A DNA stretch of 15,541 bases, from assembly GCA_029856045.1 (NCBI GenBank), contig JAHQWG010000052.1, positions 1 through 15,541 of the forward strand, given 5' to 3'. This document shows, piece by piece, positions 1-15,541 of the stretch (its first letter is position 1; every line of letters begins with the position of its first letter). Made by a program: the position numbers and the translations under genes. The notes under the pieces were generated by a model that had not been told where the DNA came from, made no database searches, and worked only from the letters and a program-made list of their open reading frames with translations. The stretch is from Promethearchaeia archaeon (lineage in GTDB: Archaea > Asgardarchaeota > Lokiarchaeia > Sigyniarchaeales > SOKP01).

Positions 1-188
1 CTTGTTTTAGCCATTAAATAAAATATTGAAATATGAAATTTATATTTTTTAAAATTGAAAAATCGAATAAGGAATCTATTGCTAAAAATAATTTTTATTG
101 AGAAGCTTAAGAATTAAGTATAATATTATATGTACCAAAATTTAATTATAATTTAATTGAGAAATAATAATTTTTGAATGATGATTTT

Positions 189-1040
189 ATGCTAAAAGAA
201 AAATTGATTAAAAAACAGCCGTTTGAGGGAAATATTGTTATAATAACTGGAGGTTCTACTGGTCTAGGAAAAGATACTGCTAAATGTGTTGTTCAATTAG
301 GGGGAAGTGTTTGTATCATTGCGAGAAATGTAGAAAATTTAAAAAAAGCTGTTAATGAAATAGAAAGTTTAAAAGTCAAAGATGACCAATTTGTTGAGAT
401 GATTTCTTGTGATACAACTAAAATGGAACAACTAAAACCTCTTTTAACGGAATTTATAGAAAAACATGGGACTCCAGATTATTTAATCAATAGTGTTGGC
501 TATGCATATGCACAATATATCGAAAACCTTACACTTGAAGATTTTAAAAGAAATATGAGTGTTAATTATTATGGTCAATTAATACCAATACTAATAATAT
601 TACCATATTTTATGAAAGCTAAGAAAGGTTATATCGCAAATGTCTCTTCTATGTCAGGTTATATTGGAACAATGGGTTTTGCTACCTATGTACCTTCTAA
701 ATTCGCAGTTGTAGGATTATCTGAAGTATTACGTCAAGAATTAAAACCTTATAATATAAATTGCTCTATTCTTTACCCTCCTGCTATGGATACTCCTGGT
801 TTTAAAAAAGAAAATGAAACTAAACCAAAAGAATGTTTCATTATTGAGGAGAGAGGCAAATTATTACAGCCTGAAGTAGTAGCAGAAGTATTTATTGAAG
901 GAATTTTGAAAAAAAAATTTCAAATTTTTCCTGGCGAAGCAAAATTTATCTGGAGAATGTATAGACTTCTTCCTAGATACGTTCGCTATTTAGCTGACAA
1001 GATGTATTTTAATGCACGAAAAGAATTAGGTAAAGAATAG
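189..1040 (+). CDS. Short-chain dehydrogenase/reductase, 3-ketodihydrosphingosine reductase (KDSR)-like subfamily
   Basis: TGGSTGLG Rossmann motif, catalytic Ser region (NVSS) and YVPSK (YxxxK). The segment YPPAMDTPGFKKENETKP resembles the KDSR-type PPDTDTPGF.EEN.TKP loop. The track starts at TTG 174; the in-frame ATG at 189 is the more plausible start. Confidence 0.85.
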   Translation: MLKEKLIKKQPFEGNIVIITGGSTGLGKDTAKCVVQLGGSVCIIARNVENLKKAVNEIESLKVKDDQFVEMISCDTTKMEQLKPLLTEFIEKHGTPDYLINSVGYAYAQYIENLTLEDFKRNMSVNYYGQLIPILIILPYFMKAKKGYIANVSSMSGYIGTMGFATYVPSKFAVVGLSEVLRQELKPYNINCSILYPPAMDTPGFKKENETKPKECFIIEERGKLLQPEVVAEVFIEGILKKKFQIFPGEAKFIWRMYRLLPRYVRYLADKMYFNARKELGKE

Positions 1041-1195: not shown

Positions 1196-2869
1196 TTATT
1201 TTTTGTGTGAAACTATAATTTCAGTTCCGAATAATATCTTTTTTGCTGTTTCAAAAGCAAAGTTATAGTCGAACACCTTCTTTCCCTTGGTATTAGTTGC
1301 ATCCTTAAAAACCTGGCTTTCGACTTTATATTTTAAACGCCCAATATCCAGAGCACCGATCCCATAAATACCCGGATAAATCTCATCGTCATTAGAATTT
1401 GGTTTTAATCCTTCAATCCCATATGGTGGAACTAAATTAATATCGAGAACAATCTTGTTTGGCGGGAGTTTTTCCATTAATTCTTTTGATATCATTTGAA
1501 TTCCGGCTTTTGCAACTGACCAAATTATATCGGCATCTTTTACTATTTCAAATTTCTCCTCATCAGTGGATGCCGCTACTCCAATTATTTCAGAAGCATC
1601 TTTACCAGCCTTTTCCGTTAATTTCTTTGCAAGTTCTTTTACAGCCTTTTCCCGACGAGAAATTATTATGGGTGTAGCGTGAAATTTAGCCGCGAGTATC
1701 GCTCCAATTTGCCCTACTGGTCCAGTACCCCCTAAAATGACTATTTTCTTTCCTGTAAAATCTGTTATTCCATGTTTTCTTGCAATTTCTATGGTTTTAG
1801 CAACAACTGCAGAAGCTGTAGTATGAGCTCCACGGGGATCTATAATTACAGGCGCCTCAAAAGGTGGAACAAGCGCATTTTGTATCTCTTCTGCAACTCT
1901 CTCTCCTTCATCAACATTTGATCCACCAACAAAATAAACGGTTGGAGCATTTGGTTTTCGTGAAAACATAGCATCTTGGACCAACTTTGCGACTCTATCA
2001 GATGTAATTTTGCAAAATGGAATAACAACATTAAATCCTGCATCATAGGCCATATTTATATCAAAAGGTGAAGCATATTCATCAGTATCAAAAAAATACA
2101 AAATACTCTCCGCTTTCTCTTTTTTCTTTACCTTTATTGGAATTATTTCAAGAACAGAGGTATTTATTAGTTCTTTTACTGAAGAAATATCATCCAAAGA
2201 TTCTTTAGCAACTTTTTTGATATTAATTTGTTCAATTTCAAGTCCTAAGTCATCTGCAAGATTTGTAATGCCTTCAAAATGTCTTTTATCACTTATAAAC
2301 AGTGCCTTTAAATGTTTTTTTTCGACTTTTTTCGCCAATTCAAAAATCCCCATCATCATCCAAGATTCGCGGATTTTATATCTTATCTCATTTTCCTGCT
2401 TATTATATTCATCAGATAAATGTTCTCTCCACATTACTAACTGTTGATAATGAGGATCATTCGGATGAATTCCGCCTTTTTCTTTTAATTGTTGAATTTC
2501 TGTATTTAATTTTTGAATAAGATCTTTACTACCATTCAATCCCGAAGAAATATAATTTAGAGCATTCTCGGGGATGCCTATCATTTTGTAGGGAATCTCA
2601 TTCTTTCTGAATAAATCTACGAATTCATCTTCATAAAGCAGTCTATCATTTGACCTCATCCCTTTATCCTCTACTACGAAGTCAGGGCTATATTTATTTA
2701 CTAAATTTTCAACAAATTCCATATATTCCTTAGAAACAAAAAATAAATTTGCAGCAATGGCTTCTTCCCCTGTCGGCTCTTCTAACGACCAATCTATCGG
2801 AAATTCACTCTCAACTAATACTAACTTAAGAGTCTTATTTTTTAAAGGTTTTAATTCTAAAGATTGCAT
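1196..2869 (-). CDS. mtdB: Fusion of an N-terminal TraB/Tiki-like domain (~230 aa) and an NAD(P)-dependent methylene-H4MPT dehydrogenase (MtdB/MtdA family); NADP-type fingerprint
   Basis: C-terminal half has DTDEYASPFDINMAYDAG, LVQDAMFSR, DPRGAHTTASA, GGTGPVG and DINLVPPYGIEG, all typical of MtdB/MtdA. GAGGT SD lies upstream of the ATG. Confidence 0.8.
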   Translation of the reverse strand: MQSLELKPLKNKTLKLVLVESEFPIDWSLEEPTGEEAIAANLFFVSKEYMEFVENLVNKYSPDFVVEDKGMRSNDRLLYEDEFVDLFRKNEIPYKMIGIPENALNYISSGLNGSKDLIQKLNTEIQQLKEKGGIHPNDPHYQQLVMWREHLSDEYNKQENEIRYKIRESWMMMGIFELAKKVEKKHLKALFISDKRHFEGITNLADDLGLEIEQINIKKVAKESLDDISSVKELINTSVLEIIPIKVKKKEKAESILYFFDTDEYASPFDINMAYDAGFNVVIPFCKITSDRVAKLVQDAMFSRKPNAPTVYFVGGSNVDEGERVAEEIQNALVPPFEAPVIIDPRGAHTTASAVVAKTIEIARKHGITDFTGKKIVILGGTGPVGQIGAILAAKFHATPIIISRREKAVKELAKKLTEKAGKDASEIIGVAASTDEEKFEIVKDADIIWSVAKAGIQMISKELMEKLPPNKIVLDINLVPPYGIEGLKPNSNDDEIYPGIYGIGALDIGRLKYKVESQVFKDATNTKGKKVFDYNFAFETAKKILFGTEIIVSHKK

Positions 2870-2891
2870 TTTTTAATTTACCTCATATTTT

Positions 2892-3590
2892 TTATTCAAT
2901 TTGTGTTGCGTGTTGTCCTATTTTTTTGAAAACTCTATTAACATTAATTTTTTCAACTTTTATTTCTAAATCATCTGCTAGAGATTTAATTCCATCAGAA
3001 TGTTCCTTATCACAGATAAATATTGCTTTTAGATTTTTCTTCTCAATCTTCCTTGCTAAATCAAGAATCCCCATCATCATCCAAGATTCTCGGACTTCAT
3101 ATCTTATCTCATCTTTTTGTCTGGAATATTCATCTTGTAAATGATCCCTCCACGCAATTAATTGCTGAAGGTTAAAATCGTTAGGATGGACACCACCCTT
3201 CTCTTTTAAATTCTCAATTTCTACTTTAATTTCTCTTAATAGACCTACATCTCTATCTATTGTCGAAGCAAGATAACCCAGAGCATTCTCGGAAATATCT
3301 ACCATTTTATATTGAATGTTAAATTTCCTGAATAAATCTACTAAAGCATCTTCATATTGTAAATCATCGCCTGAGCGCATTCCTTTCTCTTCCACTATAA
3401 AATCAGGCTTGTGATCTTTTACCAGATCTTCAATAAATTGCAAATATTCTTTAGACATAAGAAATAAATCCGCAGTAGTCATTTTTTTATCTGATGATAA
3501 TTCCATCGACCAATCTATCGGAAATTCACTCTCTACCAATAACAATTTAAGAGTTTTATTTTTTAAAGGTTCTAATTCTAATGTTTGCAT
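2892..3590 (-). CDS. Stand-alone paralogue of the N-terminal domain of the Mtd fusions (TraB/Tiki-like, unknown function)
   Basis: Colinear with aa 1-220 of 1196..2869 (ESEFPIDW, PDFIVEEKGMRS, KEKGGVHPND, RESWMMMGILD, ICDKEH). AGGAGGT SD upstream. Confidence 0.85.
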   Translation of the reverse strand: MQTLELEPLKNKTLKLLLVESEFPIDWSMELSSDKKMTTADLFLMSKEYLQFIEDLVKDHKPDFIVEEKGMRSGDDLQYEDALVDLFRKFNIQYKMVDISENALGYLASTIDRDVGLLREIKVEIENLKEKGGVHPNDFNLQQLIAWRDHLQDEYSRQKDEIRYEVRESWMMMGILDLARKIEKKNLKAIFICDKEHSDGIKSLADDLEIKVEKINVNRVFKKIGQHATQIE

Positions 3591-3608
3591 TTCTTTTTTA
3601 CCTCCTGT

Positions 3609-4238
3609 TTAAGTTAAAATTAAAATTGATTTTTTTTTCATAATTTTGTTAGTCTCAAAATTAATAACCTTGATACTTTGAGCTTCAAATAACTTTTTCA
3701 ATTCAGAAAACAATTCTTTATGGGTAAAATGGATAAAATTAATCTCATCTTCATTGATCATCTCAATTATATCTAATACTTTTTTTATGATCCATAAAGG
3801 CCTTAGTTTTAAGTCTAAATAATCTTCTTTGTCTTTTACTTCACTTTTTAAGAGATGTATCCATGAGAACAGGTTTTGAGCCTTTAATGACTCTTTTTCA
3901 GCAGGATTTAAACAGAGGTTTTCATATTCTCCTTGAAGTTCCTCAACTTGTTCTTTTTTATCTGATATCTCATTTAATAAATGGATTTTTGCGTAATCAG
4001 GGATATTAACATAATAATACGGCGTCTCAAAATTATCAAAAAACTGTGCTAAAGGAGTCTGATAAATCTTTTTTAATTCATCATCGCATAAATCAATCGT
4101 AGCAAAATTGAATTTTTTTCCTCTTAAGAGAATCAATAAATTATCATATTCTGCATCTGATAATTCTTTACTTTCCTTTTCTATTAGACATAAAGAAACT
4201 TTCTTTTCTTTTATCGGTTTTAATTCCAATACTTCCAT
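3609..4238 (-). CDS. Hypothetical protein, divergent member of the same domain family; first gene of operon 2
   Basis: Clear paralogue of 6260..6919 (FNFATIDL, IPDYAK, EISDKKEQ, AEKESLKAQNL, WIIKK). Same MxxLELxP start as the other family members. Confidence 0.8.
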   Translation of the reverse strand: MEVLELKPIKEKKVSLCLIEKESKELSDAEYDNLLILLRGKKFNFATIDLCDDELKKIYQTPLAQFFDNFETPYYYVNIPDYAKIHLLNEISDKKEQVEELQGEYENLCLNPAEKESLKAQNLFSWIHLLKSEVKDKEDYLDLKLRPLWIIKKVLDIIEMINEDEINFIHFTHKELFSELKKLFEAQSIKVINFETNKIMKKKSILILT

Positions 4239-4355
4239 TTTTTTTATCCCATTCCAAATTTTTAGGTATTTTTTTTTTCTTGAATTTTTTTATTACTATT
4301 TAATTGATTTAAATGCAATAATTTAATATATTTGATAAGAGGAATTTTGGACAAC

Positions 4356-4375
4356 TTGACTAATTAATTAGTCAA
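4356..4375. promoter_or_regulatory. Perfect 20-bp palindrome TTGACTAATTAATTAGTCAA, putative operator upstream of operon 2
   Basis: Exact inverted repeat in intergenic DNA about 120 bp upstream of ATG 4238. A counterpart lies at 7030-7049. Confidence 0.65.
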
Positions 4376-4382
4376 ATTGACC

Positions 4383-4512
4383 ATTTTTTTTATCATAAAT
4401 TAAAAGAATTTCTATTTTATAACTAGTTGTGAAAAAAATTTGACAAAAAAAGTTTGATAAAATTGACAATTGGAATAATCAAGAAAACAATTTTTTTTAT
4501 CATAAATTAAAA
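4383..4512. repeat. 23-bp exact direct repeat ATTTTTTTTATCATAAATTAAAA (4383-4405 and 4490-4512)
   Basis: Two identical copies read directly in the intergenic region between the two Mtd operons. Confidence 0.75.
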
Positions 4513-4562
4513 TATGCTTTTTAAGAATAAAATTAAAAAAAAAAAGTGAGTTTTGAATTTAT

Positions 4563-6245
4563 TTAGCGAGATATTACCATTTCTTTGCCAAATAATATTT
4601 CTTTTGCAATTTCAAAAGCAATATTATAATCGAATATTTTTTTTCCTTTAGTCTTAGTAGCTTTTTTAAGAATAGAACTTTCAGTTACAGATTTTAAATG
4701 GCCTATTCCTAATGCCCCGATTCCAAAAATTCCGGGATATATTTCTTCATTATCATATTTTGGTTTTATACCTTCAATACCATACGGTGGAACCAAATTA
4801 ATGTCTATAACGATTTTATTTTTTGGCAACTTACTCATTAATTCTATTGATAAAATTTGGATTCCTGCAGCTGCTAAAGACCAGATTATGTCAGCATCTT
4901 TGACTATTTTAAATTTTTGCTCATCCGTTATAGCGAATTCTCCAACTATTTCAGAAGCGCCTTCTCCTGCCTCTTCAGTTAATTCTTTTGCAAGTTTCTT
5001 AACGGCTTTTTCACTCCCTTTATCCCATGTCTCAACTAGAACTGTTTTACATTTTTGTTTTGCCGCAATTACTGCTGCAATTCGTCCAACTGGACCCGTG
5101 CCTAATACAACCGCTTTTTTTCCAGAGATATTATTTATCTTATGTTTCATTGCAACTTCTAGAGTTTTCGCGACTATTGCCGAAGCTGTAGTATGAGATC
5201 CTCGTGGATCTATAATTACAGGAACTTCGAAAGGTGGCACTAAGGACTTCACAACTGTTTTCGCAATTTTTTCACCTTCTCTTACATTTGCCCCACCAAT
5301 AAAAAAACTGGTCGGTGCTTTCGGTTTTCGTGAAAATATCGCATCCTGTACAAGTTTTGGCACTTGTTCAGCTTTTACATTGCTAATAGGAATGACTACA
5401 TCAAACCCTGCATCATATGCCATATTAATATCAAAGGGAGATGCATGCTCATCTGTATCTAAGAAATATACAATTTTTTCTAAAGAATTTTTATTCTTAA
5501 TTTTAACGGGAGCAACTTCCATAAGTGATACCTTTACGAATTCCTTTATCGTATTTGGTTTCTCTAAATCTCCAATATTTAAAATATTTTTCTTAACTTC
5601 AAATTTTTGAATTTCTACTCCAAGGTCATCTGCAAGGGTTGTAATCCCATTAAAATGCCTTTTATCACAAATAAATAGACATTTTAAGTTTTTCTCTTTC
5701 TGTTCTCTTGCCATATCAAGAATCCCCATCATCATCCAAGCTTCACGGATCTTATACCTTATTTCTTCCTCTTGATTTTCGTATTCCGCCTGTAAATATT
5801 CTCTCCACGTTAATAATTGCTGAAAATAGTGATCATTAGGATGAACCCCTCCTTTTTCTTTAATTTTTTCAATTTCTGCTTTAATCCCCTTTAAAAGTTC
5901 TACATTCTTGTTTATTGCTGAAACGAGATAACCAAGTGCGTTTTCTTCAATGTCTACCATTTTATAAGGTATTTTAAAATCTCTAAATAAATCTACAAAA
6001 GCATCATCATAATGTAATTTATCACTGGAACGCAATCCTTGTTCTTCAACTGCAAAATTTGTTTTATATTTCCGTAACATATCTTCAATAAGCTTAAGAT
6101 AATCTTTTGACATAAAACTGAAATTTAAAGATTGTTCAAGCTGCTCTTTTGTTGGTTCCAACCACCAACCAATTGGAAACTCACTTTCCATTAATGTTAT
6201 TTCTAATTTCTGGTTTTTTAATGGCTTTAATTCAAGTACATTCAA
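4563..6245 (-). CDS. mtdB: Fusion of an N-terminal TraB/Tiki-like domain and an NAD(P)-dependent methylene-H4MPT dehydrogenase (MtdB/MtdA family); NAD-type fingerprint
   Basis: DTDEHASPFDINMAYDAG, LVQDAIFSR, DPRGSHTTASA, GTGPVG, DINLVPPYGIEG. Full-length paralogue of 1196..2869. TTG start lies 10 nt after GGAGG, the same spacing as the ATG at 3590. Confidence 0.8.
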   Translation of the reverse strand: MNVLELKPLKNQKLEITLMESEFPIGWWLEPTKEQLEQSLNFSFMSKDYLKLIEDMLRKYKTNFAVEEQGLRSSDKLHYDDAFVDLFRDFKIPYKMVDIEENALGYLVSAINKNVELLKGIKAEIEKIKEKGGVHPNDHYFQQLLTWREYLQAEYENQEEEIRYKIREAWMMMGILDMAREQKEKNLKCLFICDKRHFNGITTLADDLGVEIQKFEVKKNILNIGDLEKPNTIKEFVKVSLMEVAPVKIKNKNSLEKIVYFLDTDEHASPFDINMAYDAGFDVVIPISNVKAEQVPKLVQDAIFSRKPKAPTSFFIGGANVREGEKIAKTVVKSLVPPFEVPVIIDPRGSHTTASAIVAKTLEVAMKHKINNISGKKAVVLGTGPVGRIAAVIAAKQKCKTVLVETWDKGSEKAVKKLAKELTEEAGEGASEIVGEFAITDEQKFKIVKDADIIWSLAAAGIQILSIELMSKLPKNKIVIDINLVPPYGIEGIKPKYDNEEIYPGIFGIGALGIGHLKSVTESSILKKATKTKGKKIFDYNIAFEIAKEILFGKEMVISR

Positions 6246-6259
6246 TTCATTTTTACCTC

Positions 6260-6919
6260 CTATTTTATAAATTGATTTGAAGTTATTACATTATTTTTAA
6301 CACTGAAAGTTCGATCTGAGATTTCAGTGTTTAAATTATGAATAATAACACTTATTTTGAATTCCTGAAGCAATTTTTCTATTTCAGGAACTAATTCTTC
6401 AGGACTAAAATGCAAAATAATTAAGGAATTTGTTTTATTAGCTCTTGCGTTATCAAATATTTTCTTAACGATCCATTGAGGCTTAACTTTTAATTTTAAA
6501 TAATTTTCTTTATCATTAACCTCATCTTTTAATAAAACTATCCAAGAGTCTAAATTTTGAGCCTTAAATGAATCTTTTTCGGCAGAATTAGATAATAAAT
6601 TTTCATATTCCGCCTCTAATTCATTAATCTGTTCTTTTTTATCGGATATTTCTTCTGATAAATAACCCTTTGCATATTCAGGGATATCAACACCCCAAAA
6701 TTGGATTAATAAATCTTCCAAAAACTTTGCTAAGGGTGATTTATTTAATTCTTTTAAATTTTTACCCATTAAATCTATAGTGGTAAAATTAAATTCACAA
6801 TTTTGTAAAAAATCCCCTAAATTTCTTGCTTCTACTTTTGATAATTTATGATTTTCTTTATTAATTATATATACAATAATCTTCTTATTTTCAGGTTTTT
6901 CAATTTCTAAAACTTCCAT
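6260..6919 (-). CDS. Hypothetical protein, divergent member of the TraB/Tiki-like family; first gene of operon 1
   Basis: Paralogue of 3609..4238. ATG at 6919 (MEVLEI) matches the paralogue's start (MEVLEL) better than the track's 6928. Its TAG stop overlaps the GGAGG SD of the next gene. Confidence 0.8.
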   Translation of the reverse strand: MEVLEIEKPENKKIIVYIINKENHKLSKVEARNLGDFLQNCEFNFTTIDLMGKNLKELNKSPLAKFLEDLLIQFWGVDIPEYAKGYLSEEISDKKEQINELEAEYENLLSNSAEKDSFKAQNLDSWIVLLKDEVNDKENYLKLKVKPQWIVKKIFDNARANKTNSLIILHFSPEELVPEIEKLLQEFKISVIIHNLNTEISDRTFSVKNNVITSNQFIK

Positions 6920-7026
6920 TTTAATCAAAAATCTTTATTTTTAATTTTTTTTTTTTAATTTATTCTTTTCTCGAGTAATAAACCTTATTTTATAATAAAA
7001 ATAATTTGATAAAAGAAATTTTATAT

Positions 7027-7052
7027 ATTTTAACAATAATTGTTGTTAAAAT
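7027..7052. promoter_or_regulatory. Near-perfect 26-bp palindrome with core TTAAC-N10-GTTAA (7030-7049), putative operator in the divergent intergenic region
   Basis: ATTTTAACAATAATTGTTGTTAAAAT has one mismatched pair. Same geometry as 4356-4375. Confidence 0.6.
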
Positions 7053-7416
7053 TGGGAGAAGTGAAAGAAATTAGTCATCGATGATTTATCAAATAATCAT
7101 TATTTAAAACAGTTTACTAAAAAAAATTGAATACGTCTTTTTTCCCTTCATTCTATGTAATCTTAAAGAAAAAATCTCGTTTTTTAAATAACTTGAATTA
7201 TCTTTTTTTTTTTTTAATTAATTTTATTTTCAGTTTAAAAAATTGGTATTATTTCTTTTTGAAGATTTTTGATCAGTAAGATTTTTATTTTTGATAATTT
7301 TATTTATCATAGTAGAAATGATAATTATTTTTTTTAATTATAATAATATTCAATTTTCGACAAAGAAATATAATTTCAAAATAATGTTTTATAAAATTTA
7401 TTAAAAGGAGATTGAA

Positions 7417-9948
7417 ATGGATATATATTCAATTTTAGCTCATCCATTTAGGAGGAAGATTTTACTACTTCTTGATAAGGAAAGTTATATCGCTTACACG
7501 GATTTGATGGACAGGTTAGGTTTAGAGACTACTGGGCAATTAAATTTTCACCTTAAAAAACTTGGGACTTTAATAAATAAAGATAAAAAATCCTATTTTC
7601 TCACGGAGGACGGAAAACGAGTTATAAATTTAATGAATATTGATAAAAAGATTTTGGCAGGCGAGGATATTGAATATTTAGATAAAGTTGGTAGTGAGAT
7701 TAATCGTGTAGGGGTTATTATTTGTAAGTGTAATACTGAAATTTCAAATCTTATAAGTATTAATGCACTTGAAAATTACCTTAAAAGAATTCCCAATGTG
7801 GTTACTGTGAAGATTTTTGATAATCTTTGTCAGGAGAAAAATATGGAACAGATTACTAAATGGTCTAAGGATAATTATTTGAATAAGATTGTTATTGCTG
7901 CGTGTTCTCCAAAAACTCATCTGCATATATTTGAGAGAATTTTTGATGGAGTTATTGATAAAGTTAATATTGAGATTGCTAACATCCGGGAACAATGTTG
8001 TTGGGTACATCAAAAGGAACCCACTTTAGCGTTAAAAAAAGCACAAATTTTAATTGAAGCGGCGGTTGAGCGCGTAGCATTACAAAAAGATGTTCAAGTA
8101 AAAACAGTTAAGATTGAAAAAAGTTGTGCTATTTTGGGTGGCGGAATTGCAGGGATGACACTTGCATCAAGTTTAGCAAAGGCTGGGATTAAAGTCTATT
8201 TAATTGAAAAATCCCCAACATTAGGAGGTAAAATTGCCAGGTGGAGTAAAATTTATGGAATGGGTGATTGTTCAATTTGTCTTATGTCAGAAATGATAGG
8301 TGAGGTCGTAAAAGAAAAAAATGTCGAAATTTATACCAATACTGAGATTGAGAAAGTTTCGGGTGAGGTAGGAAATTTTTCGATTGATTTAATTAAAAAG
8401 CCCCGATATATTGATGAAAAGAAATGTACTGGATGTAAAAGATGTATTGAAATTTGTAGTATAGAAAAAAGTAATCAATATGAATTTGGATTAACAGCAA
8501 GGAAGTTAATTTATATTCCTTATGTTCAATCTTATCCATATGCTCCAGTGATTGACCAAGAAGATATTGAAACTTGCCGACAATGTAGAATTTGCGAGCG
8601 AGCTTGCAACAATAATGCGATTGATTTGGATCAAAAACTTGAAAATATAAGGATTAGAGTTGGAACAAAAGTAATAGCAATAGGTGCAGATTTTTATTCT
8701 GATCTAAAGTCTTATAAATATAATCCCCAAAATGATATAATTACAACACCGGAATTTGAACGTATTCTATCAGCGGATGGACCAACAGAAGGTAAAATTT
8801 TGAAACTTTCAGATGGGAAACCCCCGAAAACTATCTCAATAATTCAATGTTTAGGCCCATTTGATGATTTGCCGGAACATTGTAGTACTCTCGCTTTAAA
8901 ATATTTGGAATCTATTTATTTACAGATTCCAGATTGTAAACTCAATATATTTTTTGATTTGAATAAAATTAGGAAATCTAATGGGTTCATGTTAGACCCA
9001 TCTGATGAAAAATTTCATTATTATGACAATATTGAAATTATAGAGAAAGGAAATAAGAAAATAATTATTTCTGATTCAGAGCAGTATCCCTCTGATATGA
9101 TCGTGTTAAATGTCAATTTTGTTCCAAATAAAGATTTAAAAGAACTTCGAAAGACATTAGATTTTACATTAGACGATCATGGTTTTATGAGTGAAGAAAC
9201 GCTGGCATCAGGTATTTTTGGTGTCGGTTCAATTAAAGGTCCATTAGATTATAATTCAGTGATCTCTTCTTCTAATGATATCGCTATTAAAATTATTTCA
9301 TTGTTATCAACTGATTATTTAATTACAGAATTTAGCGGTATCGAAATCAAAGAAGAGAATTGCGGATTGTGTGGTTTATGCATATTATCCTGCCCTTACA
9401 ATGCAATCACAATTGAGGCAGATAAAATTACTATTGATAAATTCAAATGTAAAGGATGCGGAACTTGTGTAAGTGTTTGTCCCACAAATGCACTTGACTT
9501 AAACATTGATACTACTGAAAAGATACTGAAATCAATTGAAGTATATTCTAAATTCAATTTAAAACCAAAAATAGTTGCATTCTGCTGTCGTTCTTGCGGA
9601 TATGGTGCAGCCGATGAAGCTGGTCTAAAGAAACTTTCCTATAATCCCAACATCTTTATTATTAAAGTTCCATGCACAGGGCGGGTAGATGCGAGTTTAA
9701 TTTTTAAATCTTTCAAATTTGGATTTGATGGAGTAATGATTATTGGTTGCAGAAAAGATTCCTGCCGATTTATAAATAGTGTAGATCAAGTAAAACAAAA
9801 AGTTAAACTTTTAAGAGAAGTTTTAGGTCCTATTGCTGAAAAACGAATAATACGTAAATCATTAAGCGCCGTCGAGGGCAATAAATTTGCAGAGATTGTA
9901 AATTCTTTTTATCAGAGATTATCGGAGGAGATTAAAAATGAAACCTAG
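7417..9948 (+). CDS. hdrA: Winged-helix (ArsR-like) DNA-binding domain fused to heterodisulfide reductase subunit A and a C-terminal MvhD domain
   Basis: aa 1-75 wHTH (LAHPFRRKILLLL...TGQLNFHLKKL...YFLTEDG). HdrA motifs CKC, AACSP, NIREQCCWVH, GGGIAG, DCSIC, four CxxCxxCxxxC ferredoxin motifs and EFERIL..DGPT. MvhD motifs FCCRSCGY, VPCTGRVD and DGVMIIGC...C. AGGAG SD upstream. Confidence 0.9.
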   Translation: MDIYSILAHPFRRKILLLLDKESYIAYTDLMDRLGLETTGQLNFHLKKLGTLINKDKKSYFLTEDGKRVINLMNIDKKILAGEDIEYLDKVGSEINRVGVIICKCNTEISNLISINALENYLKRIPNVVTVKIFDNLCQEKNMEQITKWSKDNYLNKIVIAACSPKTHLHIFERIFDGVIDKVNIEIANIREQCCWVHQKEPTLALKKAQILIEAAVERVALQKDVQVKTVKIEKSCAILGGGIAGMTLASSLAKAGIKVYLIEKSPTLGGKIARWSKIYGMGDCSICLMSEMIGEVVKEKNVEIYTNTEIEKVSGEVGNFSIDLIKKPRYIDEKKCTGCKRCIEICSIEKSNQYEFGLTARKLIYIPYVQSYPYAPVIDQEDIETCRQCRICERACNNNAIDLDQKLENIRIRVGTKVIAIGADFYSDLKSYKYNPQNDIITTPEFERILSADGPTEGKILKLSDGKPPKTISIIQCLGPFDDLPEHCSTLALKYLESIYLQIPDCKLNIFFDLNKIRKSNGFMLDPSDEKFHYYDNIEIIEKGNKKIIISDSEQYPSDMIVLNVNFVPNKDLKELRKTLDFTLDDHGFMSEETLASGIFGVGSIKGPLDYNSVISSSNDIAIKIISLLSTDYLITEFSGIEIKEENCGLCGLCILSCPYNAITIEADKITIDKFKCKGCGTCVSVCPTNALDLNIDTTEKILKSIEVYSKFNLKPKIVAFCCRSCGYGAADEAGLKKLSYNPNIFIIKVPCTGRVDASLIFKSFKFGFDGVMIIGCRKDSCRFINSVDQVKQKVKLLREVLGPIAEKRIIRKSLSAVEGNKFAEIVNSFYQRLSEEIKNET

Positions 9949-10699
9949 TTTCTTAATCGAATCATTGACTTCTTGTAGTGGTTGTATCTCAACAATGATT
10001 TCATTAGATATCTTTCCTCAATTTCTTGATAAGGTAAATCTCGTTCGTTGTTCATTTATGAGAGATGAAAATAATATCACTGAAAATGATATCGCTTTAA
10101 TTGAGGGGTGTGTTTCAGAGGAAAAACAAATCGATATTCTTAAAAATATTCGGAGTAAATCCAAGAGAGTAATTGCTTTAGGAACTTGTGCCGCTTTTGG
10201 AGGAATGCTTGCACTCTCAACGGTAAAACAAGCAGAACCTATATCTAATTATATTGAAATAGATGGAATAATTCCTGGATGTCCACCACCTTCTAAATTA
10301 TTAGGTAATTGTATTATTAGATTGTTAGAAAATAAAGATATAGTTTTACCTGAAAAAAACGTTTGTGCAGATTGTGAATTTAGAACTGATGATATTGAAA
10401 AAAAATTTAAGAGACGAATCAATGCAATAATGCCGAAAAATTATAATGTAGATAGTGAAATTGAAGATAAGCGTTGCTTTTTAGAAAGGGGAATTTTATG
10501 TTTGGGACCAATAACTAGAGATGGTTGCGAGTGTAAGTGCATTAAATTTGGCCTTCCTTGTGATGGGTGCATGGGACCAATTAAAAATGATTTCACCTCT
10601 AATACCATTAATTTTTTGAGCACGGTAAATCTTGCCAAAGGTCTAAGGAAATATAAAGGAATTTTCTATCGTTATTCAAAACCAAAAACCAAGAGGTAA
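9938..10699 (+). CDS. mvhG: [NiFe]-hydrogenase small subunit, group 3 (MvhG-like)
   Basis: SCSGC, IEG, GTCAAFGG, IPGCPP, CADC, CFL, CLGP, GCECKC and PCDGCMGP motifs. Overlaps the end of hdrA by 11 nt. Confidence 0.85.
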   Translation: MKPSFLIESLTSCSGCISTMISLDIFPQFLDKVNLVRCSFMRDENNITENDIALIEGCVSEEKQIDILKNIRSKSKRVIALGTCAAFGGMLALSTVKQAEPISNYIEIDGIIPGCPPPSKLLGNCIIRLLENKDIVLPEKNVCADCEFRTDDIEKKFKRRINAIMPKNYNVDSEIEDKRCFLERGILCLGPITRDGCECKCIKFGLPCDGCMGPIKNDFTSNTINFLSTVNLAKGLRKYKGIFYRYSKPKTKR

Positions 10700-10705
10700 A
10701 AAATT

Positions 10706-12010
10706 ATGAAGAAAGTAGTTGATGTATGCACCCGGGTTGAAGGACATGGAAATATAAAAATTTTACTTCAGAAGGATGAAATTACAAGTGTGAATTTTGA
10801 TCTTGAGATATTTCGAGGGTTTGAAAATCTATTGATTGATAAAAGGTTGATTGATGTTCCTAGAATTGCATCAAGAATATGTGGATTATGTCACGCATCA
10901 CAAACAATAGCAAGTTGCAAAGCAATAGAGAGCATGTATGAAATTGAACCCTCTCTACAATCAGTTCTTTTACGGCGATTATTAATGATTGGTGAGTTGA
11001 TAAAATCACATTCAATGCATTTCTTTTTTCAAGCATTTCCCGACCTTTTTGTAATTTTGGATAAACAACCAAAACCACTCTCACTGAATGAATTAGTCCA
11101 TTTTGATTCTAAATTAACTTCAAATATGTATGAATTAATAAAAATCGGCAATGAAATTGTGAATTTATTTGGCGGAAAATCCGTTCATTTAATAACACCC
11201 ATTATTGGTGGTATATTTTTTTCACCCTTAAAAAAAGAAATAAATCTTGCACGGAGATATCTACAAAATTCTATAAATAATTTAAAATGGGTTATTGAGC
11301 GTTTCATAGAGATATTTTCTCAATTTGATCCTCCTGTTGTTTATTCCTTACCAAATCCTGCTTATATGGGAATGCATAATGATGAAAAATTTGATCGGTA
11401 CAGTGGAATCTTACGATTGGCACAAAATAATAAAATTATCGCTGATTTTCCCGTATATAAACATTCACAATATTTTGATAAGCAGGAAGATTTACATGGA
11501 ATTGATTTCTATCTAAAAAACGACCAAAACATTCTTGTTGGCCCACTCGCACGGAATAAAATAATTAAAGATTATGGAATAGATGAACTGCAATCCTATA
11601 TTGGTCTTTTTAATAAAGAATGGCAAAATAGTATTTTATTCTCAAATTTTATTAGACTAATTGAAATGTTGTTTTTTTCTTATGAAGGTTTATCAATTCT
11701 AGATGAAGCTGAATTGATACAAAAAAATGATATAAGTCCCATTAATTTTTTAAAAAATAATGAAGGAATCGGCATGGTTGAGGCACCCCGAGGAACGCTT
11801 ATACATTATTATCATGTAAATAAAAAAAGATTAATTGATAAAGTGAAACTTTTTGTTGCAACTGAAATTAATTTGCCCATTATTGATGAAATCCTTACAA
11901 CACAAAGCCAAGAATTGTATGAAAGAACTGGTGATTTAAATCAGATCAAAAAACAAGCACAAATGATTATAAGATCGTTTGACCCCTGTATCTCTTGCGC
12001 AACACATTAA
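10706..12010 (+). CDS. mvhA: [NiFe]-hydrogenase large subunit, group 3 (MvhA-like), lacking the C-terminal extension
   Basis: TRVEGHG, RGFE, L1 RICGLC, VEAPRGTLIH and L2 DPCISCATH followed directly by TAA. Confidence 0.88.
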   Translation: MKKVVDVCTRVEGHGNIKILLQKDEITSVNFDLEIFRGFENLLIDKRLIDVPRIASRICGLCHASQTIASCKAIESMYEIEPSLQSVLLRRLLMIGELIKSHSMHFFFQAFPDLFVILDKQPKPLSLNELVHFDSKLTSNMYELIKIGNEIVNLFGGKSVHLITPIIGGIFFSPLKKEINLARRYLQNSINNLKWVIERFIEIFSQFDPPVVYSLPNPAYMGMHNDEKFDRYSGILRLAQNNKIIADFPVYKHSQYFDKQEDLHGIDFYLKNDQNILVGPLARNKIIKDYGIDELQSYIGLFNKEWQNSILFSNFIRLIEMLFFSYEGLSILDEAELIQKNDISPINFLKNNEGIGMVEAPRGTLIHYYHVNKKRLIDKVKLFVATEINLPIIDEILTTQSQELYERTGDLNQIKKQAQMIIRSFDPCISCATH

Positions 12011-12168: not shown

Positions 12169-14430
12169 TTATTTCTCTTCTTCCTTAAATATTTCCACTA
12201 TTTTATCTTCAGAATCTCTGAAAGGATGCAGAGCTCCTGTCCAATCCGGAAGATAAGTTTTATGTTTTTCCTCGAACCATTCAACAAATTCTTTTAAAAG
12301 ACTACGGTTTTCTAATGATTGTCTTCCTTTTACAAATAATGCTGAGAAAATATATTTCCCATATTCAATTATAATTGTGATATCTCCATGGTCAATAGTC
12401 TTTAGTAACTCCGAACTTTTTGTTGCTTCTTTAATGAAGGCTGTAATAGCAGTGAATAGACCTGCAATCAAGCCTGAATCGGCAATATCTCCCACTTGCT
12501 TAAAGTTATGGCTAACTAAATCCCTTCCATCTGAATAAATTACATAAAGTCCTTGCAGCTCGACTTTTTCATAATCATATGTGAATTCTGGAATCCAAAA
12601 AGAGATTTTTCCATTATAAAATAGATATTTTAAAGTAAAATAAAATCTACGCATTTCTTCCTTCTCTATTGGTCTAATTTCTTTCAAAAACTTATTATTC
12701 TTGATTATTTCTAATAAATCTTTAACTTCTTCTCTTTCTTCAATTTTTTCTGCTTTAACTTCTGGTTCAGGAGTTTTTACTACTAAATATCGATAGAGAT
12801 CTGTAACATATGCATCAAACTTTGGAAATTCAGAAATTCTTGAAAAAGAAATCTTTTCGACCATTTTTTCTCCCTTAAAAACATTTTTAGCAATAAAGAT
12901 TTTATTTAAATAATATAAAATTAATCCCCAGATTAATAGATTAAAAACATAGCGTGTATAAGTGAATGGAATCGCTAAAATTTCTAATAATGGAAATCCA
13001 CCTTGAGTTGAAAGGTTGACTTTGAACAATACTGTCCTTATTGTGTAAATATTTTTATCAAGAAATGAAAAATAAGCTGGTGAACCAGTAATCCAATATT
13101 CTTCCGGAGCAAAATTGATTGGAGGATAAAAACCTGCAAATCTAACCAATATTGAGATTAAAATGACAATCCCAAGATAGATAAAAGAAGTCATAGCAAT
13201 CTTTTTAATAAACTGCATACTTCTCGAGAAAAGATATGCAAAAAGTATAACAGAAAAAATTAAGATAAATGTATTTATGATATTAAATAGGTCTAATCTC
13301 AACGCCTCTTCTAAAAATATATTATTTCCATAAGAAATATCAGCTTTTAGTAGTAGTTCGTCAAAATATTCTTGACTCATAATTATCCCTATCTGTAATG
13401 GATTAATTAAAAATTGGTAAATAATAAGGAAAATTACACACCCTCCTACGCCAATAATTAAAGGAATATACCAATTTGTCCAATCTATCTTTTTTTTCTT
13501 CGTTTTTGTTCTTTTCCATAAATCAATTAACTTTATAAAAATTAAAATCGCAATAGGTTGAAAAATTTTATGGAATAAAATAAATATTCCAGCACCCATC
13601 ATAAAATATGCGAAGAAATAAAGTATGAAAACGTAATTTGTAGTAGTATCTGCTAAAAATAATAAAATGCTTAGAAGAGATATTGGAGTTCCTACTTGAA
13701 ACAAACTTCTAAAAGTATCTTCTCTCAATTTTTCTCCAATGTATACTCCTTTAAAGGAAATTTTACTACTATACACCAAGTGAATCCCAACTAACAGTGT
13801 AGCAATATATACAAATAAAATTTCCACAAACCATCCCATAGTTGTTGTACCTGTGGTTAAATCAATGCTCTCTAAACCTAAAAGTTCGATTATGACGGAT
13901 ATTAAGTATAGAGATATTGGCAAAAGAACAATTAATAATTTTAAGAGTTGTTTTTCTTCCGACCAATCACCTTTTATTAGTCCCTCTTCTATCATATCAG
14001 AAGGACTTTTTTTAAATTCAAAAGTTAGATCGGCAAGTTTATCCCTCATAACTCCCGGTTCTTTTCGCAATTTTCTCCATAATATAAGAAACGATAAAAG
14101 TGGACCTACTAAAAATATAAATGTTAAAGTTACAAAAGGATATTGGAAAAAATAGCCAATTAGAGACATCATATGAGAAAATATGAAAAAAAATGCCATA
14201 AAAATATTTTCTTGTTCTTGGGGATGCAATTGAAGCTCCTTAGGATCGATATCTGTTTGAAACATGATTGGTAAAATCCAATATACTAGAAAAAAAATAA
14301 CAATTCCTAAGAAGACTCTTAAGTATAATTTTCCAATTAATCTTTTATAAATAAAAGGAATTGGAATCGCCAAAAAAATGATTGGTAGCCCATTTAAAAA
14401 CAATAAATAAAATATTTCTATCGGTTCCAT
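12169..14430 (-). CDS. Multipass membrane protein (about 12-13 hydrophobic segments) with a C-terminal longin/roadblock-like domain
   Basis: Hydrophobic helices span aa ~5-510. The last ~130 aa (GLYVIYSDGRDL...DSGLIAGLFTAITAFIKE...IIIEYG...FEEKH...DWTG...F) follow the longin-like pattern common in Asgard proteins. Confidence 0.7.
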   Translation of the reverse strand: MEPIEIFYLLFLNGLPIIFLAIPIPFIYKRLIGKLYLRVFLGIVIFFLVYWILPIMFQTDIDPKELQLHPQEQENIFMAFFFIFSHMMSLIGYFFQYPFVTLTFIFLVGPLLSFLILWRKLRKEPGVMRDKLADLTFEFKKSPSDMIEEGLIKGDWSEEKQLLKLLIVLLPISLYLISVIIELLGLESIDLTTGTTTMGWFVEILFVYIATLLVGIHLVYSSKISFKGVYIGEKLREDTFRSLFQVGTPISLLSILLFLADTTTNYVFILYFFAYFMMGAGIFILFHKIFQPIAILIFIKLIDLWKRTKTKKKKIDWTNWYIPLIIGVGGCVIFLIIYQFLINPLQIGIIMSQEYFDELLLKADISYGNNIFLEEALRLDLFNIINTFILIFSVILFAYLFSRSMQFIKKIAMTSFIYLGIVILISILVRFAGFYPPINFAPEEYWITGSPAYFSFLDKNIYTIRTVLFKVNLSTQGGFPLLEILAIPFTYTRYVFNLLIWGLILYYLNKIFIAKNVFKGEKMVEKISFSRISEFPKFDAYVTDLYRYLVVKTPEPEVKAEKIEEREEVKDLLEIIKNNKFLKEIRPIEKEEMRRFYFTLKYLFYNGKISFWIPEFTYDYEKVELQGLYVIYSDGRDLVSHNFKQVGDIADSGLIAGLFTAITAFIKEATKSSELLKTIDHGDITIIIEYGKYIFSALFVKGRQSLENRSLLKEFVEWFEEKHKTYLPDWTGALHPFRDSEDKIVEIFKEEEK

Positions 14431-14514: not shown

Positions 14515-15541
14515 ATGAATAACATAGGGATAATCTCAGATAAAGATTTTGGAATTTTAAATGAACCACCTTTCCCCCGACCTTATTTTGAAGCATTTGA
14601 AACACCTTTAAGAATTAAATGTATTATGGATTACTTTGAAAAAAAGAACTTATTTGAAGATAATAGGATAAAAAAGATTCCAATAAGAAATTTTGAAAAG
14701 ATTGAGGCAATACTTGAATTAGTTCATACTAGATACCATATTGATTCAATAAAATATTTTTCAAATTTGGCTTCTGGAAGTGTTGGTGAAACTGTTTTCA
14801 TTACTGAAGAGACATTTAAATTAGCAAAAAAAGCAGTTGAAGGAACAATTACTGCTTTTAATTCCGTCATATCAGGAGAAGTCAATCAATCATTTGCTTT
14901 CATAAGACCTCCGGGTCATCATGCACTAAGAGATGTAGCTTCAGGTCTGTGCATTTTTAATAATATCGTAGTGGGTATTCAATATTTAAGAAAAATAAAA
15001 AAAAATGCGAAAAAATTCGCCATTATTGATATAGATAATCATTATGGAGATGGAATCGCCAAATTTTTTTATGAAGACCCTGAGGTCCTTTATTTTTCAA
15101 TTCATGAGTATGATTTTGACCAAGGGGAACTGGGTTTTATTCATGAGCTTGGAAATAATGAAGGTTTAGGCTATAACATTAATTTTCCAATACCTCCCAA
15201 AACTACTGATAAGTATTATTTAGATTTTTTTGATATTTTAGAGGCAGTGTTTTCAGAATTTAAACCTGAAATGATAATTATCGCCTGTGGATTTGATTGT
15301 CACTACACCGATCCCATCGGAAATTGTTTGCTTACAGCCAATTCCTACATAAAATTTACTCAAAAATTATTAACACTCGCAAATAATGTATGTAATGGGA
15401 AGATCTCATTTATCCTCGAAGGAGGATATAGCTTAAGTGCATTACCAATATGTTCTTACGCTATAGTTAAAACACTACTAGGTGATATGGTTAATCTACC
15501 TTCTCAAGAAAAAATAGAATTTCCCGAGGATTTAGATATCT
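14515..15541 (+). CDS. Zn-dependent histone deacetylase family protein (HDAC/AcuC/APAH), 3'-truncated by the window edge
   Basis: Manual translation from ATG 14515 (MNNIGIISDKDF...) is open to the end and contains RPPGHHA, GLCIFNN, DIDNHYGDG, SIH, GFD and LEGGY. Confidence 0.9.
   Translation, partial: MNNIGIISDKDFGILNEPPFPRPYFEAFETPLRIKCIMDYFEKKNLFEDNRIKKIPIRNFEKIEAILELVHTRYHIDSIKYFSNLASGSVGETVFITEETFKLAKKAVEGTITAFNSVISGEVNQSFAFIRPPGHHALRDVASGLCIFNNIVVGIQYLRKIKKNAKKFAIIDIDNHYGDGIAKFFYEDPEVLYFSIHEYDFDQGELGFIHELGNNEGLGYNINFPIPPKTTDKYYLDFFDILEAVFSEFKPEMIIIACGFDCHYTDPIGNCLLTANSYIKFTQKLLTLANNVCNGKISFILEGGYSLSALPICSYAIVKTLLGDMVNLPSQEKIEFPEDLDI

Follow-up and report, generated by a model that had tools for sequence, protein, structure and literature searches.

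Several described systems resemble, each in part, the locus analyzed here, which lies on a contig (JAHQWG010000052.1) of a Loki-type Asgard archaeon and encodes a fusion of a domain of the winged helix-turn-helix (wHTH) type with HdrA and MvhD, two [NiFe] hydrogenase subunits and, divergently, two operons of Mtd-type dehydrogenase genes. The group 2b hydrogenase HoxBC of Cupriavidus necator acts with HoxJ and HoxA, and its output is gene regulation. PutA is a flavoenzyme controlling a divergent gene pair, and the MetFV-HdrABC-MvhD methylene-tetrahydrofolate reductase clusters of acetogens place hdrA-mvhD genes beside a redox enzyme of one-carbon (C1)-pterin metabolism. More generally, in trigger enzymes such as the archaeal RbkR (a wHTH joined to a riboflavin kinase; PMC5397151) and the bacterial PutA, BirA and NadR, a DNA-binding domain is fused to an enzyme, and palindromic operators lie on its own promoter and on those of functionally linked genes. 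Our comparisons make it somewhat probable that this locus constitutes a local regulon under the control of a DNA-binding hydrogenase/HdrA complex, forming a conserved and self-contained module of Loki-type Asgard archaea, most likely a variant of trigger enzymes and H2-sensing hydrogenases.

The likeness to each of these systems is incomplete. As in HoxBC, the output proposed here is gene regulation, and MvhA and its orthologues have the same tail-less large subunit and the same replacement of a His by Gln. In contrast to HoxBC, this hydrogenase is archaeal and MvhA/MvhG-like (group 3c by best matches), no histidine kinase (none is encoded in the locus) or response regulator accompanies it, the putative DNA-binding domain is carried by the accompanying HdrA-MvhD subunit, and the sensing role is putative as well. 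The HdrA, MvhD, MvhG and MvhA parts are homologous to those of the electron-bifurcating methanogen MvhAGD-HdrABC complex (5ODC, 8RVU; E-values from 1e-119 to 1e-26), but here MvhD is fused to HdrA, a wHTH is added at the N-terminus, HdrB/C are not encoded in the locus, the CxGSRD...CSxxCC motif is lost, and MvhA has Gln for His and no tail. With trigger enzymes it shares the fusion and the palindromic operators, the latter deduced here from sequence comparison only; it differs in being a multi-subunit hydrogenase/flavoprotein whose effector would be H2 or the redox state rather than a metabolite. As in the acetogen clusters, hdrA-mvhD stands beside a C1-pterin redox enzyme (in one related contig MetV and MetF themselves); unlike them, it has no HdrBC, its partner is a dehydrogenase and not a reductase, and a physical complex between the two is hypothetical. 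In the literature searched, we found nothing on an HdrA-wHTH fusion, on DUF7347, on a TGACAA/TTGTCA motif in archaea or on a Lokiarchaeal MtdB, and no description of H2 sensing by Asgard archaea. Public annotations name the fusion "hydrogenase iron-sulfur subunit", "FAD-dependent oxidoreductase" or "heterodisulfide reductase subunit A".

Gene layout and a conserved dyad

The window, that is, the stretch of DNA analyzed, is this entire 15.5-kb contig (positions 1 to 15,541) from a genome of 3.34 Mb and 29% GC. On its plus strand, the wHTH-HdrA-MvhD fusion, the proposed regulator (7417-9948), is a single uninterrupted open reading frame (ORF) of 843 aa, an architecture shared by 151 clusters at 90% identity; its residues 1-75 form an ArsR-like wHTH matching the Pfam family DUF7347. 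It is followed on the same strand by an MvhG-like [NiFe] hydrogenase small subunit (9938-10699; Pfam Oxidored_q6, NCBIfam VhuG with E 6e-37), whose start overlaps the end of hdrA by 11 nt, and by an MvhA-like large subunit (10706-12010; closest PDB match MvhA 5ODC_F, E 2e-47). On the minus strand, operon 1 encodes a small protein of 222 aa (6260-6928), with orthologues in relatives and no Pfam family, and a 560-aa fusion of an N-domain with an MtdA/MtdB-type dehydrogenase (4563-6245; Pfam Mpt_N 94.6 bits, cut-off 27). Operon 2, also on the minus strand, encodes a small protein of 209 aa (3609-4238), a stand-alone N-domain paralogue of 232 aa (2892-3590; 56% identity to residues 1-226 of the fused protein) and a second fusion of 557 aa (1196-2869; Mpt_N 86.6 bits, cut-off 27). 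The original prediction, made from the letters alone, had placed the wHTH-HdrA operon head-to-head with the first of two duplicated Mtd operons. This layout is borne out by the domain and ORF analysis, and the two operons are true paralogues (59% identity between the fused proteins and 48% between the 209- and 222-aa small proteins).

By comparing the orthologous intergenic regions of relatives, we derived a conserved 18-bp dyad, TGAYAA-N6-TTRTCA. Its half-sites are kept while the six central bases vary and are mostly not self-complementary, which favors recognition by a dimeric DNA-binding protein over an RNA hairpin. Nearly every genus has a dyad (6+6 or 5+6) at 85-110 nt upstream of the small gene, and many genera have a second strong one 65-131 nt upstream of hdrA. 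In the window, it is present on the hdrA promoter (O_hdrA, 7292-7309; a perfect TGATAA-N6-TTATCA, 107 nt upstream of the hdrA ATG) and on both Mtd-type operon promoters. The operon 1 site (O_op1, 7031-7048; TAACAA-N6-TTGTTA, 5+5) lies 102 nt upstream of the start of the 222-aa gene, and the operon 2 site (O_op2, 4357-4374; TGACTA-N6-TAGTCA, 5+5) 118 nt upstream of that of the 209-aa gene. In same-genus relatives, the orthologous sites read TGACAA-N6-TTGTTA and TGATAA-N6-TAGTCA (6+5), respectively. Operon 2 has two further copies, TGACCA-N6-TTATCA (4378-4395; 5+6) at 21 bp from O_op2 and TGACAA-N6-TAATCA (4464-4481; 6+5); neither these nor O_hdrA had been noticed in the original prediction.

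The enrichment of the dyad was assessed on 13 loci, one per genus for most genera, with a threshold of at least 11/12. The target intergenic DNA contains 25 such dyads in 7.6 kb, against 6 in the remaining 162 kb (about 90-fold), and AT-rich control windows contain 3 in 9.9 kb. Three of the perfect dyads counted as outside are probably real sites, since they precede 76-93-aa mini-paralogues of the helical hairpin of the small protein. In this genome, perfect dyads occur 6 times in 3.34 Mb, 2 of them outside ORFs, O_hdrA being one of these; dyads of at least 11/12 outside ORFs, mostly A/T-only variants, number 26 genome-wide, 3 of them in the window. The only other perfect non-ORF dyad (C36:25862-25879; L051:2863-2880) separates the gene of a proteasome subunit from a ThuA-like one, being 337 nt upstream of the ThuA-like gene, and may be due to chance; no second locus of a wider regulon can be claimed in this genome.

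In most genera of one family (f1), the dyad is followed after about 18 nt by cTTRTCAAAT with a T/A-rich run and, about 27 nt further, by an ACTTAG-like motif. The cTTRTCAAAT and TTTWTATT strings, kept across genera, may represent a putative transcription factor B recognition element (BRE) and TATA box, and the ACTTAG-like motif may mark the transcription start. A weaker dyad is found in several genera exactly 24 bp downstream of the main one, overlapping the putative BRE.

Linkage and co-occurrence in relatives

The adjacency of regulator and Mtd-type genes, on which the original prediction rested, holds in related genomes. Of the 22 relatives that have both, about 18 carry the wHTH-HdrA-MvhD/MvhG/MvhA unit next to the small/N-domain/Mtd genes and in divergent orientation to them. 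The linkage extends over at least two families and some 13 genera, and the divergent arrangement is also seen in the metagenomic contigs L058 and L059. In a phyletic survey of 41 genomes, which, being related, are not independent samples, both units are present in 22 and neither in 13, Mtd-like genes alone occur in 5 and the HdrA fusion alone in none. Among the five Mtd-only genes, one lies at a contig edge and the other four are distant homologues (30-42% identity). The one complete single-contig relative searched (G032, 4.4 Mb) has neither unit. No other DNA-binding gene is kept in the neighborhood of the locus among the compared relatives.

The co-occurrence of palindrome and regulator was likewise upheld. 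Where the two units are separated, 14 kb apart in G020 and on different contigs in G023, a 6+6 dyad is present at the Mtd cluster and at hdrA or its contig; in G009, two dyads lie in the hdrA intergenic region, where hdrA has a neighboring small gene. In four genomes that lack the fusion, no dyad of at least 11/12 was found in the vicinity of their distant Mtd-like genes. Finally, in a contig of another type (Hel-type, L055), wHTH-hdrA faces an unrelated 177-aa gene, with no Mtd, and, in the whole 12.8 kb, strong dyads (two) occur only in the intergenic region between them. Together, the separated units, the fusion-less genomes and this contig indicate that the operator tracks the wHTH-HdrA gene. 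The divergent neighbor in Hel-type contigs is a 175-177-aa protein of no known family with the motif FLKGGKxCKRxPGF (L055:6132-6665; L056:5383-5916 and 6151-6684; L057:5904-6431), and BLAST detects no similarity of the 177-aa protein to the small or N-domain proteins.

Mtd-type enzymes and the N-domain family

Residues 256-554 of the 560-aa fusion align to full-length MtdA (PDB 1LU9/6TLK) with an E-value of 1e-32, so that the C-terminal half of each fusion is, by sequence, a genuine MtdA/MtdB-type dehydrogenase. It resembles the MtdA/MtdB of methylotrophs, NAD(P)-dependent dehydrogenases of methylene-tetrahydromethanopterin or methylene-tetrahydrofolate, across the whole of MtdA and with Mpt_N above cut-off; it differs from them in being fused, in this genus, to a 250-aa domain without fold assignment that is also present as separate paralogues. 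None of the window proteins matches PF01993, the F420-dependent Mtd of methanogens, and the sole match to this family in the genome is a canonical F420 Mtd encoded elsewhere (C2:2698-3507). Mch and FolD are also encoded outside the window. The analogy with methanogen mtd/hmd expression drawn in the original prediction therefore does not carry over directly, since the methanogen genes encode enzymes from other families that depend on F420 or H2, in contrast to the MtdA/MtdB-type genes of the window. Still, having both F420-type and NAD(P)-type candidates for one C1 step would fit a regulated choice of cofactor.

The N-terminal 250 aa of the fusions, the 232-aa protein and, more distantly, the small proteins constitute one uncharacterized family with five copies in the locus. 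For this family, neither Pfam nor NCBIfam gave a match and no fold comparison was convincing, and the homologues of the 232-aa protein are all hypothetical proteins of Loki-type metagenome-assembled genomes. The AF2 model of the N-domain (pLDDT 82.7) retrieved nothing from the PDB with Foldseek at E <= 0.001. In a wide VIA search, ChaN (2G5G; Z 8.7, root-mean-square deviation 4.4, 150 aligned residues) and CbiL-type methyltransferase N-domains (Z 8.5) were retrieved; both fall inside the stated noise range of the tool and were rejected.

Hydrogenase and HdrA subunits: sensory or catalytic traits

In the fusion, Pfam and motif searches identify FlpD, Fer4 and flavin adenine dinucleotide (FAD) motifs. 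The NCBIfam HdrA2 model is matched with an E-value of 8e-177, below its cut-off, and among PDB sequences HdrA of 8RVU (E 5e-119) and MvhD (5ODC_D) are matched. The iron-sulfur (Fe-S) cysteines of the CxGSRD...CSxxCC motif are lost across the family; HdrA retains the FAD motif, the cysteines of the N-terminal cluster and its two motifs of ferredoxin type. The ORFs of the window include no CCG-domain or HdrC gene, the rest of the genome having not been searched for HdrBC. The wHTH-HdrA orthologues have no in-frame stop codon, and the wHTH-bearing HdrA copy is thus of the Cys type and selenium-independent, whereas most other HdrA paralogues in these genomes have 1-5 in-frame TGA codons, probably for selenocysteine.

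The L1 motif of MvhA reads RICGLCHASQ, with Gln where 5ODC_F, 7T2R and 9SFI have His, and RxCGLC[HY]ASQ with this Gln is found in 20 of 21 MvhA orthologues. MvhA ends at DPCISCATH without extension, 25 residues before the end of the canonical 5ODC_F, and its orthologues end at DPCxxCxxH, with a tail of 0 aa in 18 of the 21 and 6-11 aa in the other three. The large subunits of regulatory, H2-sensing hydrogenases likewise lack a C-terminal extension (PMC8159394) and carry a Gln where other [NiFe] hydrogenases have a conserved His (PMC5665086). Best matches of MvhA to MvhA/VhuA and to sulfhydrogenase (group 3) place it outside group 2b, and it is at most sensor-like in its traits. Taken together, the MvhA and HdrA traits favor a sensory or at least specialized role, with which catalysis would remain compatible.

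These traits bear on the possibility that the complex is primarily a working hydrogenase/flavoprotein serving the divergently encoded C1-pterin enzymes, in the manner of MetFV-HdrABC-MvhD assemblies, its wHTH only autoregulating the module according to its catalytic or redox state, as in PutA or RbkR. The joint, module-like gain and loss with the Mtd-type cluster speaks for such a trigger enzyme, as does the retention of the HdrA FAD motif and of most Fe-S motifs, and RbkR is a characterized archaeal precedent of a wHTH-enzyme fusion with palindromic operators and autoregulation (PMC5397151). In a more distant contig (L060), moreover, genes for MetV (PF12225) and MetF (methylenetetrahydrofolate reductase, PF02219) at 3957-5593 are divergent from wHTH-hdrA-mvhGA in place of the Mtd cluster, which indicates that C1-pterin redox enzymes are a recurrent partner of the Hdr/Mvh unit. 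Against this stand the sensory-type traits of MvhA, typical of low-activity hydrogenases, the loss of one HdrA cluster motif and the lack of HdrBC in the locus. The small and N-domain proteins show no Fe-S motif and only one near-invariant Cys. In MtdA-type enzymes, hydride moves directly from pterin to NAD(P) or back, and the family is not known to carry an electron-accepting cofactor. We regard this explanation as rather unlikely.

The winged-helix domain as a predicted DNA binder

The wHTH domain matches DUF7347 (PF24038) with 49 bits (cut-off 27.6) and HTH_24 and HTH_20 below cut-off; its only PDB sequence match is an ArsR-family repressor (1Y0U, E 0.009). The recognition helix (T39-G-Q-L-N-F-H-L46) and K55, Y60, L62, T63 and G66 in the wing are invariant in 32 orthologues, and in comparisons outside this genus identity is 63-80% over the N-terminal 95 aa but 52-69% over the complete protein. 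A homodimer model of residues 1-98 reaches an ipSAE of 0.59, versus 0.01 for the best control, with pLDDT of at least 83 and runs agreeing in at least 66% of contacts; of the proteins solved as pairs, 20 of 30 attained this mark, and of those solved as single chains, 1 of 23. The modeled interface comprises residues 1-13 and 68-82, that is, the first and last helices, leaving the recognition helices free. Because ArsR dimers have already been solved, the model is to be read as a likeness and not as proof of binding. From the family match, the conserved helix and wing and the modeled dimer, we infer an ArsR/SmtB-like winged-helix domain that is predicted to bind DNA.

A second fusion of a DUF7347 wHTH to an enzyme is encoded in the same genome (G000:C35:125948-128077; L052:948-3077, minus strand), where it is joined to an ATP-cone and the anaerobic ribonucleotide reductase NrdD in a protein of 709 aa. 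It recalls the logic of the bacterial NrdR, and inspection by eye of the 175-nt upstream region revealed no obvious palindrome.

Alternatively, an unlinked transcription factor could bind the dyad, the wHTH of HdrA being a structural adaptor that acts off DNA, and the genes could be co-regulated since their products cooperate. There is a precedent in BamF of class II benzoyl-CoA reductase, in which the wHTH is a protein-protein interface in an HdrA-like complex (bioRxiv 10.64898/2026.04.10.717634), other DUF7347 wHTH proteins are encoded in the genome, some of them stand-alone, and some wHTH-hdrA loci have no clear N6 dyad. Nevertheless, the dyad is almost confined to this locus, so that a dedicated regulator encoded locally would be expected to bind it, and the surroundings contain no further conserved DNA-binding gene. 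The dyad also follows wHTH-hdrA where the neighbor is not Mtd, as in the Hel-type contig, and none of at least 11/12 was found beside the Mtd-like genes of the four fusion-less genomes. Moreover, the recognition helix and wing are the most conserved parts of the wHTH, and its closest paralogue in the genome is only 37% identical. An unlinked factor thus appears improbable, and binding of the dyad by the fusion itself is preferred.

Palindromes of the Mtd-type promoters

The original prediction had reported matching palindromes in both Mtd operons. Both exist where they had been placed: P1 at 4356-4375, TTGACTAATTAATTAGTCAA, is a perfect palindrome with O_op2 as its core, and P2 at 7030-7049, TTAACAATAATTGTTGTTAA, has one mismatched pair and O_op1 as its core. 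Their match, in contrast, did not hold beyond the half-sites, as they are identical at 10 of 20 positions. Nor is their palindromy by itself significant: 20-bp palindromes with at most one mismatch number 520 genome-wide, one per 6.4 kb, and about 2.4 are expected in the window, where 3 were found. A loose pattern, TTRAC-N10-GTYAA, was not enriched genome-wide (21 seen versus 15-19 in Markov simulations) and was discarded in favor of the 6-N6-6 dyad.

In gene orientation, each of P1 and P2 precedes, by exactly 7 nt, a 19-nt box, AAAATTYCTYTTATCAAAT, which has two occurrences in the 3.34 Mb, both in this locus. The conserved, putative promoter box of operon 1, AAAATTTCTTTTATCAAAT (7004-7022, minus strand), consists of a putative half-site/BRE followed by a T/A-rich, TATA-like run, and that of operon 2, AAAATTCCTCTTATCAAAT (4330-4348, minus strand), is its counterpart in the aligned promoter regions. 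Between the Mtd-type operons, there is a 107-bp tandem duplication (4343-4405/4450-4512, 75% identity over 63 nt), each copy of which holds a dyad pair 21 bp apart and the string TTTTTTTTATCATAAATTAAAA; the dyad at 4464-4481 belongs to the upstream copy.

That these palindromes are functionless, arising by chance in AT-rich DNA or left over from the operon duplication, would accord with the genomic frequency of such near-palindromes, with the limited identity of P1 and P2 and with the duplicate nature of the two promoter regions, but is already contradicted by half-sites kept at fixed positions across about 13 genera, by their enrichment and by the third, perfect copy on the non-duplicated hdrA side, and we set it aside as extremely improbable.

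Neighboring features

A run of 11 T (minus strand), terminator-like, directly follows the operon 1 stop codon. At the left end of the window, a short-chain dehydrogenase gene (174-1040, plus strand) has an all-A/T 20-bp near-palindrome upstream (139-158). At the right end, a 753-aa protein (12169-14430, minus strand) has no Pfam or NCBIfam match and is kept only inside the genus, and a histone-deacetylase-family gene (14515-15540, plus strand) runs off the end of the contig. In other genera, a Cdc48-like double-AAA ATPase of 733-773 aa is encoded directly after Mtd (L025:11492-14124, L029:9559-12411, L033:232-2843, L058:915-3191), and in G005, G022 and G015 this gene is followed by a further perfect dyad and then by a 76-93-aa mini-paralogue. 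The window does not have this arrangement of ATPase, extra dyad and mini-paralogue, and the identification of the 753-aa protein as the Cdc48-like ATPase was rejected.

A proposed hydrogen-responsive module

The location of a predicted DNA-binding domain on HdrA-MvhD, together with a rare dyad on its own promoter and on two neighboring ones, suggests that the complex probably switches these genes itself. In the mechanism that we propose, wHTH-HdrA-MvhD, MvhG and MvhA would form a [NiFe] hydrogenase/flavoprotein complex derived from group 3c, and the ArsR-like wHTH at the HdrA N-terminus would bind TGAYAA-N6-TTRTCA as a dimer. The hydrogenase/FAD/Fe-S part would read H2 or the redox state and alter DNA binding, so that both the NAD(P)-type C1-pterin dehydrogenase genes and the sensor would be expressed in keeping with this state, possibly affecting C1 flux in turn. 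The dyad on the hdrA promoter implies autoregulation. On the Mtd side, the main dyad would occupy an activator-like position, about 40 bp upstream of the putative TATA box; set against the weaker dyad 24 bp downstream, which overlaps the putative BRE, this does not fix the sign of the regulation. In its strongest form, the proposal is of a hydrogenase wired directly to DNA, a dedicated sensor of H2 (or of H2-linked redox state) and transcription factor in one, with neither kinase nor second messenger, that switches the NAD(P)-type C1-pterin dehydrogenase operons according to hydrogen supply; this form is tentative, and we consider it possible but doubtful.

Several observations weigh against these proposals. 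The relatedness of the surveyed genomes limits the weight of their counts, and P1 and P2 are only 5+5 matches to the dyad in this genome. In more distant contigs (L056, L057 and L060), the N6 dyad is absent or weak, and the spacing or orientation of the GACAA half-sites differs. Changes in the recognition helix do not cleanly track those of the dyad: in family f4, Q41 is replaced by I or K and the outer T of the dyad by A, but in G015 the helix is changed and the dyad is not. With its FAD motif and most Fe-S motifs retained, HdrA may still be a working enzyme and not a pure sensor, and the BamF case shows that a wHTH in such a complex can serve as a protein interface. The Gln of MvhA is presumably at the position of Q67 of HoxC. 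In regulatory hydrogenases, the Gln "seems not to be involved in H2 sensing" (PMC5665086). Overall, what the original prediction observed is partly confirmed. Its interpretation is partly supported, through the kept linkage, the co-occurrence and near confinement of the operator and the two MvhA traits, while H2 as the signal and an effect on the direction or cofactor choice of the C1 step are conjectural.

Current models of Asgard physiology, like those of the syntrophy proposed for the origin of eukaryotes, give hydrogen exchange a central place. If true, the module would provide a directly testable link from H2 or redox state to transcription, with a short and well-defined operator, and would add a new architecture beside the bacterial HoxBC-HoxJ-HoxA sensor. 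It also draws attention to the uncharacterized family of small and N-domain proteins that is associated with an MtdA-type C1 enzyme in these archaea.

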